From Patellaria atrata CBS 101060 (lineage: Eukaryota): DNA of 53,832 bases. The first letter of the stretch is position 1. Each line of letters opens with the position of its first letter. The position numbers and the translations under genes are program-made. Location: assembly GCA_010093705.1 (NCBI GenBank), contig MU006106.1, positions 124,001 to 177,832 on the forward strand, written 5' to 3'. Below, in pieces: positions 49,154 through 50,185 of this stretch. Under the pieces are notes generated by a model. That model worked only from the letters and a program-made list of their open reading frames with translations. It was not told the DNA's origin and made no database searches.

Positions 49154-50185
49154 ATGGGTGTTCCCTTCGACTATGCGCCCGATCGACCGGAGCATATCGA
49201 TGTCATACTTAACGGCCTTGACCGATACAACCCAGAAACCACCGCTGTCTTCCAGGACTATGTCATGCAACAGTGTGAAAATCAGACATATGACTGCTAC
49301 GCAAACTTAGCGCTTCTGAAATTGTACGTAATCTGCTTTCTATCTAAGGGTTCAAAAATTCCCTTCATACTGTCCAATATGATGAATAACTTACCACGAA
49401 CGTTTCCTATTACCCGAGGGCAACGGAGCATGAATCTCTCCAGCCCGTTGAAGTATCTTTTTAGCTCTATCTGATATGACATTCTTCACTATTCGCTATT
49501 TCATTTTCCGAGAATTGAACCATCTGCTGATTATTCTCCCACTATATCAGATACCAGTTTAACCCTCACCTCACCCGGGACGAAACAATAACCAACATCC
49601 TCGTCAAATCTCTTACCGTCTTCCCCTCGCCAGACTTCAGCCTGTGCCTCTCTCTTCTACCCCCGCACATTCTAACACCTCACGCCGCATCCCTCTCTGC
49701 TCCTGCGGCCGGCGACGCGTCTCTCCCGGAAGCCGTACAGAAACTCAACGTCCTCAACAACTTACTTGGCGGTGCAGACTATGCCGGCTTCTGGGCTGAG
49801 CTAGACTCAGACGACCTCTACGCAGATCTAGTAGCAGATGTGAGCGGGTTCGAGGAGTTGATGCGGGTTCGGATTGCGGTGACGGTATCTCAGGCGATGA
49901 GGGCGGTGAAGAGAAGTGTGCTAGAAGCGTGGTTGAACCTGTTTGGAAGCGGGTTCGAACACTTTGTAGGTGAGGTGTGTGGATGGGTAGTAGAAGGGGA
50001 TACAGTGAAAGTGCCTCTGAATAAAGAGAATGAGGCTAAGGGGACGGTGGTGAGGGAAAATGTGAAATTTGACCGTAAGTTCTAACTATTTTGTTTGCCC
50101 TTTCAAACTCGCGATATGAAGATACTAACGATAGCTTGCAGAGTTCTCGAGATTGATCAAACGAGCGTACGAGCAACCTGCATAG
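49154..50185 (+). CDS. EIF3K: Eukaryotic translation initiation factor 3 subunit K; exons 49154-49324, 49551-50074, 50142-50185
   Basis: [18 protein letters not shown]...[19 protein letters not shown]...[19 protein letters not shown]...[11 protein letters not shown]...[31 protein letters not shown]. Confidence 0.95.
49371..49481 (+). ncRNA. Intronic box C/D snoRNA, U44/SNORD44-like (predicted 18S rRNA 2'-O-methyl-A guide)
   Basis: Inside the unusually long (226 nt) eIF3k intron 1: box C ATGATGA (49379-85), box D CTGA (49471-74), flanking TGTC/GACA stem, D'-like CCGA (49414-17) and internal GGGC/GCCC stem. The guide TTAGCTCTA before box D is antisense to the conserved 18S sequence UAGAGCUAA. 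Confidence 0.85.

Follow-up and report, generated by a model that had tools for sequence, protein, structure and literature searches.

The window, by which we mean the whole stretch of 53,832 nucleotides that was analyzed, carries on its forward strand a gene for eIF3k with three coding exons (49154..49323, 49551..50074, and 50142..50185, the last through the stop codon). Splicing out 49324-49550 (227 nt) and 50075-50141 (67 nt) leaves a frame encoding 245 amino acids. All three exons follow from the spliced translation; exon 1 agrees with the protein alignment as well, and exon 2 matches PF10075 and shares 100% identity with a named protein of Patellaria atrata. The choice of eIF3k as the host gene in an earlier, sequence-only reading of this DNA was thus borne out. 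That reading was also right that the first intron is long, although splicing makes it 227 nt and not 226 nt. Intron 1 (phase 2, GTACGT...CAG), like intron 2 delimited by the splicing model, lies at a position common to most of the homologues and contains a branch-point-like motif at 49526..49531, recognized by motif match. All features described below for the window are on this same + strand.

Within intron 1 lies an element that, by every feature testable in sequence, is a box C/D snoRNA. Its homologues came from an alignment of eIF3k against metagenome contigs, from which the best 80 of 222 confirmed stretches were taken; every count or median for homologues given here refers to this set of 80. 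Box C (ATGATGA, 49379..49385) has a GA-GA core with little or no variation among 51 aligned copies, and box D (CTGA, 49471..49474) lies 76 nt ahead of the 3' splice site, close to the median of 72 nt in the homologues. The two boxes span 96 nt inclusive and are enclosed by an outer terminal stem of 4 bp, in which TGTC (49371..49374) pairs with GACA (49478..49481), as the sequence-only reading had noticed in describing ATGATGA and CTGA about 95 nt apart with a terminal stem. Besides folding in the window copy, the outer stems of the homologues exceeded the pairing of shuffled sequences (mean longest run of 3.9 versus 3.06). A second pair of boxes is found inside the element, namely, box D' (CCGA, 49414..49417) and box C' (TTGAAGT, 49448..49454), the latter with a nearly invariant TGA and an invariant next G in the alignment. 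The C' box, as well as the internal hairpin and the D' guide described below, did not figure in the earlier reading.

Pairs of C and D motifs are frequent in this DNA: of the 32 other RTGATGA sites in the window, 12 are followed by a CTGA at a distance of 50 to 150 nt. The folding energy of the region was unremarkable (z 0.18), and Rfam gave no match at the cut-off anywhere in the window. The intron element reached the gathering cut-off of no family; the result for the window copy was a partial match to SNORD44 (RF00287) of 14.2 bits, covering model positions 34-59 of 61, with a gathering cut-off of 40 bits. What makes the element more than chance is that each guide pairs best with rRNA at exactly the site predicted for it and that the element recurs in 59 of 63 distinct orthologous introns.

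The position of the intron was kept in 72 of the best 80 of 222 loci, and the other eight, without an intron, are probably transcripts. Removal of 10 exact duplicates from the 72 left 62 distinct introns, or 63 with that of the window. The C/D scaffold was present in 59 of them, with both guides in 51 of the 59 copies; the alignment of eIF3k intron 1 proposed in the sequence-only reading hence reveals boxes and guides kept in orthologous introns. Median identity to the window was 0.79 over the snoRNA, versus 0.50 and 0.57 over its two flanks. The four introns devoid of the snoRNA were all short (53 to 96 nt) and belonged to three Aureobasidium-like loci (92 to 94% protein identity) and one distant locus. 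In the Aureobasidium-like loci (L014, L016, and L017), the intron was kept (86 to 96 nt) and the snoRNA lost, and the snoRNA model found no copy there.

Of the distinct copies carrying a D' guide (51 in number), 23 were Dothideomycete-like, 16 Leotiomycete-like, and 3 Lecanoromycete-like, and 9 were left unplaced, the class being that of the best named-protein match at an identity of at least 83% in a reference set that contained no named Sordariomycete or Eurotiomycete protein. The classes of the matched genera are those to which we take them to belong. A search of the protein atlas assigned no class to the unplaced loci either. Several copies were single-guide derivatives: the 18S guide was lost or degraded in L029, L075, and L076, and so was the 25S guide in L027, L030, L044, and L074. 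In intron 1 of the unplaced locus L077 (about 396-464), the A162 guide was kept and the D' guide had been swapped for one forming 13 bp with 18S 46-58 (target C49), the same guide that is found in Neurospora CD4.

The D guide, TTAGCTCTA (49461..49469), is followed by a T and then by box D. With the 18S and 25S rRNAs of the same genome as pairing targets, it formed 9 bp with 18S 159-167, so that the +5 rule points to A162, and the duplex (-12.1 kcal/mol) had the lowest energy among 1159 rRNA windows. This adenosine is equivalent to human Am166, Arabidopsis Am162, and Neurospora Am161; the U44-type 18S guide with an Am166-equivalent target that had been read from the letters alone is accordingly found also in the genome's own 18S. 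Published tables enter the site as human Am166 guided by U44 and list no Saccharomyces cerevisiae counterpart (PMC2780460, PMC8583080, PMC11542601), in line with the earlier statement that this yeast lacks the methylation. The exact guide, together with box D, was present in 56 of the 59 copies. Its pairing in the window is short, since the guide was at least one base longer in 55 of the 56 exact copies and reached 10 to 11 bp in most. The antisense of C/D guides has been stated to range from 10 to 21 bp (PMC2780460); the D guide of the window falls one base pair below this range, and the D' guide, with 13 bp, falls inside it.

This D' guide (49400..49412) is the stronger of the two. It pairs with 25S 2932-2944 over 13 bp (one of them G-U) and is separated by a single base from the CCGA of box D', which makes U2935 the target under the +5 rule. 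Its duplex of -17.2 kcal/mol was the best of the 1159 rRNA windows. Positions in 25S are in yeast numbering, anchored on a uridine that we take to be U2921, an anchor consistent with the bases found at 2946, 2948, and 2959 and with the Arabidopsis-yeast equivalences. U2935 lies 3' of the A-loop helix H92. The guide was conserved in 54 of the 59 copies, always in the same register, and the box after it was CTGA in 30, CCGA in 22, and something else in 2. No U methylation at the position equivalent to 2935 appears in the tables for Neurospora (predicted sites), Arabidopsis, tomato, tobacco, human, and yeast of PMC2780460, PMC8583080, and PMC11542601, and among the papers listed by a literature search none mentioned Um2935, Am2934, or Um2936. 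Along the same lines, the guide table for Neurospora (PMC2780460) lists no guide for the 25S stretch around U2935, and Tables 1 and 2 of the Aspergillus study (PMC2377427) hold no such target.

Between boxes D' and C', the RNA folds into an internal hairpin (49418..49446) with an outer stem (49418-21/49443-46), an inner stem (49425-28/49438-41), and a loop of 9 nt (49429-37) that holds a conserved UGAAUC. The 4-bp stem with the 9-nt UGAAUC loop was detected in 41 of 55 distinct copies from the best 80 of 222 loci, one further copy having been excluded because its motif overlaps D'. In a pairing test anchored on the loop, the inner stem of these 41 copies was paired in 157 of 164 cells, while shuffling gave a mean of 147.4 and none of 5000 trials reached the same value. 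Compensatory changes in the stem (G-C to C-G and A-U to G-C) amounted to only a few events. The loop was intact in two lineages that lack the 25S guide (L027/L030 and L074) and damaged in two that lack the 18S guide (L029 and L075/L076). The whole hairpin was absent from several two-guide lineages, and also from L044 and L077, which have only the 18S guide of the pair. As for a target of the loop, none stands out from its pairing with 18S and 25S. The pairing of UGAAUC with 18S 244-250 (7 bp, -7.4 kcal/mol) was equaled or beaten by 13 of 1159 windows, and its other partners were 18S 155-158 (4 bp) or a site in 25S. We claim no target among them, given that a 6-mer match is expected by chance.

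Between box C and the D' guide is a candidate extra-pairing element, TTACCACG (49391..49398), that is complementary to 18S 148-155. In the 18S figure for Chaetomium of PMC12723226, these bases correspond to the 5' strand of helix 8. The sequence-only reading had placed it correctly as antisense to the neighboring 18S but had taken it for a perfect complement; the duplex has 7 Watson-Crick pairs and 1 G-U pair, because the genome's 18S, which reads UGUGGUAA, has a U where that reading had a C. No box follows the element, and its 18S complement adjoins the guide target at 159-167. Among the 59 copies, the exact 8-mer occurred in 2 and ACCAC in 27. Pairing of at least 6 bp with 18S 144-158 was reached by 21 of the 23 Dothideomycete-like copies but by only 1 of the 16 Leotiomycete-like ones and none of the 3 Lecanoromycete-like ones; among the 9 unplaced copies, 1 reached this length and 8 reached 5 bp. 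The enhancer by extra pairing that had been proposed earlier is thus matched by pairing in Dothideomycete-like copies, but this pairing is mostly missing in the Leotiomycete- and Lecanoromycete-like ones. Where pairing exists, lineages use differing registers of one and the same 18S strand.

We ranked this 18S stretch against the rest of the rRNA, leaving out the window copy and weighting the others by protein cluster (90, 85, and 80% identity). By duplex length, the 18S 145-159 stretch took rank 2 to 8 among 1546 rRNA windows, and by energy rank 7 to 42, the weakest version being the strict spacer scored by energy (rank 26 to 42 of 1546), so that across all versions it was within the top 0.1 to 2.7%. 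Every homologue was scored against the rRNA of the Patellaria atrata genome and the homologues are mutually related, and for these reasons we regard the support for the spacer as moderate. The U-rich spacers of Leotiomycete-like copies also paired with 18S 170-184 (9 of 16 copies, rank 9 of 1546), a candidate that we rejected as low complexity.

Extra pairing in spacers beside box C or C' has been reported for snR47 and snR60, in a study that describes effects of up to five-fold for extra-pairing elements (van Nues et al. 2011, PMC3116282). The elements described there for snR47, snR60, snR70, and snR75 are short conserved rRNA complements that pair near the target and do not precede a D box, and the fungal spacer likewise has its complement next to the target and no D box after it. 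It differs from them in being restricted to some lineages and in being a candidate, and the D'-C' loop has no clear adjacent target. Since the spacer follows box C and the guide precedes box D, the RNA would grip both strands of helix 8, its two contacts three bases apart. Weighing these points, we lean slightly toward the spacer acting as an enhancer in this lineage, judging from pairing and its distribution. The window copy combines the shortened D guide (49459-49469 region) with one of the longest spacer pairings, and in this one case the long spacer pairing could compensate for the short guide.

We also looked for relatives of the two guides elsewhere in the genome. Exact matches numbered 3 for the D-guide motif (1 in the control) and 3 for the D'-guide motif (4 in the control). 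Among the D-guide matches, L088 could have been a second copy but was rejected as chance, as it has no box C at a fitting distance. At L090:1501-1519 (G000:C26, about 270057-270075, - strand), a 14-base perfect antisense to 18S 159-172 is followed by T and CTGA; we likewise consider it chance, there being no clear box C and, on the opposite strand, a 602-amino-acid frame with a kinase-like end. The D'-guide matches L091 and L092 had no score with the snoRNA model. Since the genome-wide search relied on exact motifs and the snoRNA model was applied to loci only, diverged paralogues may remain.

Two other snoRNAs in this genome have guides to the same part of 18S. An 82-nt intronic box C/D snoRNA at L102:1479-1560 (G000:C4, about 1092969-1093050, + strand), which has no Rfam match at the cut-off, carries a D' guide of 11 bp to 18S U168, corresponding to the D' guide of Neurospora CD32, and a D guide of 9 bp to 18S U125. 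Downstream of it, a frame ends in IPPVSSG, which we take to resemble the small subunit of molybdopterin synthase. The second, at L094:1438-1515 (G000:C2, about 2107962-2108039, + strand), has guides to 18S A155 (12 bp) and to 25S G2918 (yeast numbering); by its guides, it is the orthologue of Neurospora CD17, and it is clustered with Rfam matches over the cut-off to Afu_455 and Afu_294. The helix 8 region is thus covered by three overlapping predicted guides in the genome (for A155, A162, and U168), and competition of overlapping guides has been discussed (PMC3116282). Fragmentary matches resembling small-subunit rRNA were also found outside the main rDNA contig, at L003 (G000:C114) and L004 (G000:C6:750437-750703), and are perhaps mitochondrial rRNA and a nuclear remnant.

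In order to put the eIF3k-intron RNA into perspective, we compared it with known guide RNAs. The closest in design is Arabidopsis snoR18a/b (At3g/At4gCDbox105), which has two guides in the same order as the fungal RNA, D' to the stretch of 25S that lies 3' of H92 and D to 18S Am162, and whose D-guide tail and box D are identical to those of the fungal RNA. Both of its targets, 25S Am2935 (D') and 18S Am162 (D), are in the RiboMethSeq table of PMC8583080. The D' targets differ by one base, the plant guide addressing an A (Arabidopsis Am2935, equivalent to yeast A2934) and the fungal guide the next base 3', U2935. The fungal copies also have a longer D'-C' hairpin with its UGAAUC loop, and they reside in eIF3k introns. 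Two of the homologues, L069 (20.9 bits) and L020 (21.1 bits), aligned over positions 1-88 of 88 with snoZ102_R77 (RF00359), a family that shares clan CL00060 with SNORD44, albeit below its cut-off of 40; the window copy had no match among those listed. In human SNORD44/U44, the D guide addresses the corresponding adenosine of 18S, Am166, and the 14.2-bit match to its model does not include the fungal D' guide to 25S. Because the second guide of the fungal RNA is a conserved 13-bp D' guide to 25S, it is a two-subunit double guide like plant snoR18, which goes beyond a copy of U44.

Among fungi, a close counterpart is Neurospora crassa Nc CD32 (EU780956; CD_32 in snoStrip), likewise intronic and with the same D guide and box D. 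It was cloned as cDNA, has a predicted target of 18S Am161, and was listed with snoR18 and U44 as homologues and with none in either yeast (PMC2780460). Its D' guide addresses 18S Um167, whereas that of the eIF3k-intron RNA addresses 25S. CD_32 has been reported only from Sordariales (PMC5824354), and the searched text and supplement of PMC2780460 name no gene as the host of CD32. In the ciliate Tetrahymena, the Rfam consensus of TtnuCD4 (RF02281) has a matching large-subunit antisense ahead of CUGA in the fungal register, but the box behind it is D, at the 3' end of the RNA, and not D' as in the fungal copies, and only model positions 34-60 match; no annotated target of TtnuCD4 was found in the main text of PMC3273799. 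We found no paper naming a snoRNA in an eIF3k intron or this host, although supplementary lists may hold such an entry, and the main texts of PMC8216456 and PMC8476143 name no initiation-factor gene as a snoRNA host. By function, the eIF3k-intron RNA groups with plant snoR18/Z102-R77 and human U44. Going by its guides and boxes, we expect it to work like snoR18 and U44, and formally it lies outside RF00287, RF00359, and CD_32.

Taken together, these data lead us to assign a probability of about 90% to the reading that the element is a double-guide box C/D snoRNA directing one methylation in each ribosomal subunit, at 18S A162 and at 25S U2935. After splicing, debranching and trimming of eIF3k intron 1 would set free an RNA of ~100 nt, along the known pathway, and Snu13, Nop56, Nop58, and Nop1 would assemble on C/D and C'/D'. 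The D guide would then direct 2'-O-methylation of 18S A162 and the D' guide that of 25S U2935; the pairing is read from the sequence in both cases, and the +5 rule predicts which base is modified. In Patellaria atrata and in most Dothideomycete-like relatives, the spacer would in addition pair with 18S 148-155, and helix 8 would probably be gripped on both strands. We somewhat favor the idea that this grip helps the opening of the helix and the competition with the overlapping guides for A155 and U168. By its position, the snoRNA is presumably co-expressed with eIF3k. This location requires no special functional link, since intronic snoRNAs are known to relocate among broadly expressed host genes (PMC3511168).

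Other explanations concern mainly the 25S guide. The RNA might be a single-function copy of U44, in which only the D guide methylates and the 25S stretch is a folding aid or inactive, and this would fit the absence of a Um at the 25S site from the published tables named above, the CCGA in place of CTGA as box D' in Patellaria atrata, and the loss or replacement of the D' guide in 5 of the 59 copies from the best 80 of 222 loci. We nevertheless judge it quite improbable: a 13-bp antisense stands one base ahead of D' in 54 of the 59 copies (ahead of CTGA in 30), the C' box and the D'-C' stem are conserved, the D' target of the plant counterpart is a mapped methylation (PMC8583080), and the Rfam consensus of Tetrahymena TtnuCD4 has an antisense to 25S in the fungal register before box D. 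A related idea, which overlaps with the best explanation, is that the D' guide acts in a shifted register on the neighboring A2934 and so has the function of snoR18. The plant RNA does target the A one base 5', and methylation of adjacent sites from one guide has been discussed for U24 (PMC8583080), but all 54 copies with the D' guide keep the register that gives the U by the +5 rule, as does the TtnuCD4 consensus, and we hold a shift to A2934 to be improbable.

The remaining alternatives deny either the role given to the spacer or the snoRNA itself. As an option, the sequence-only reading had seen in TTACCACG the relic of a former second methylation guide, which would fit its complementarity to 18S 148-155 beside A155 (human Am159), a site that is snoRNA-guided in other species. 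This is unlikely because no D-like box follows the element and A155 has its own 12-bp guide elsewhere in the genome (L094). Furthermore, the D' position is taken by the 25S guide, the exact 8-mer is kept in so few copies (2 of 59), and the pairing slides in register among lineages, which is impossible for a +5 guide; we give the relic very little credence. Finally, there might be no snoRNA at all, but only motifs that arose by chance or an intron element with a role in the splicing or regulation of eIF3k, and this would fit the frequency of C and D motif pairs in the window, the unremarkable folding energy, and the lack of an Rfam match at the cut-off. Such an explanation would have to account for two rRNA antisense stretches in exact box register, conserved over three fungal classes while the flanks diverge, and for the identity of one guide to that of a cloned Neurospora snoRNA, and we regard it as extremely improbable.

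Coming back to the double-guide snoRNA, its origin can be addressed with more caution. We are inclined to believe that it descends from one ancestral two-guide RNA held in common with plants. A fuller scenario, which we put forward as tentative and rather doubtful, is that the fungal RNA descends from a two-guide snoRNA predating the plant-fungal split, whose 25S target slid by one base (U in fungi and in the ciliate Rfam consensus, A in plants) and which docks on 18S with accessory elements, the spacer on the other strand of helix 8 and possibly the UGAAUC loop, with CD32 as a later recombinant. CD32 might have arisen by joining the D half of the eIF3k-intron RNA to a U168 guide, and this would fit the presence of a U168 guide on a separate intronic snoRNA (L102) in this genome.

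The mechanism proposed here is an ordinary one and implies no new kind of biology. Its interest is in closing a gap in the inventory of fungal snoRNAs: the U44-type family, which the published survey placed in Sordariales only (PMC5824354), has a version in eIF3k introns of Dothideomycete-, Leotiomycete-, and Lecanoromycete-like fungi, and this version carries another second guide. It also predicts a 25S methylation beside the A-loop helix that is lacking in budding yeast. If the RNA is indeed an ancient two-guide snoRNA, filamentous fungi would carry Um2935 near the peptidyl transferase center. The losses of single guides, the guide swap, the losses of the whole snoRNA, and the shift by one base relative to plants provide natural variants for studying how guide RNAs and their rRNA sites evolve.
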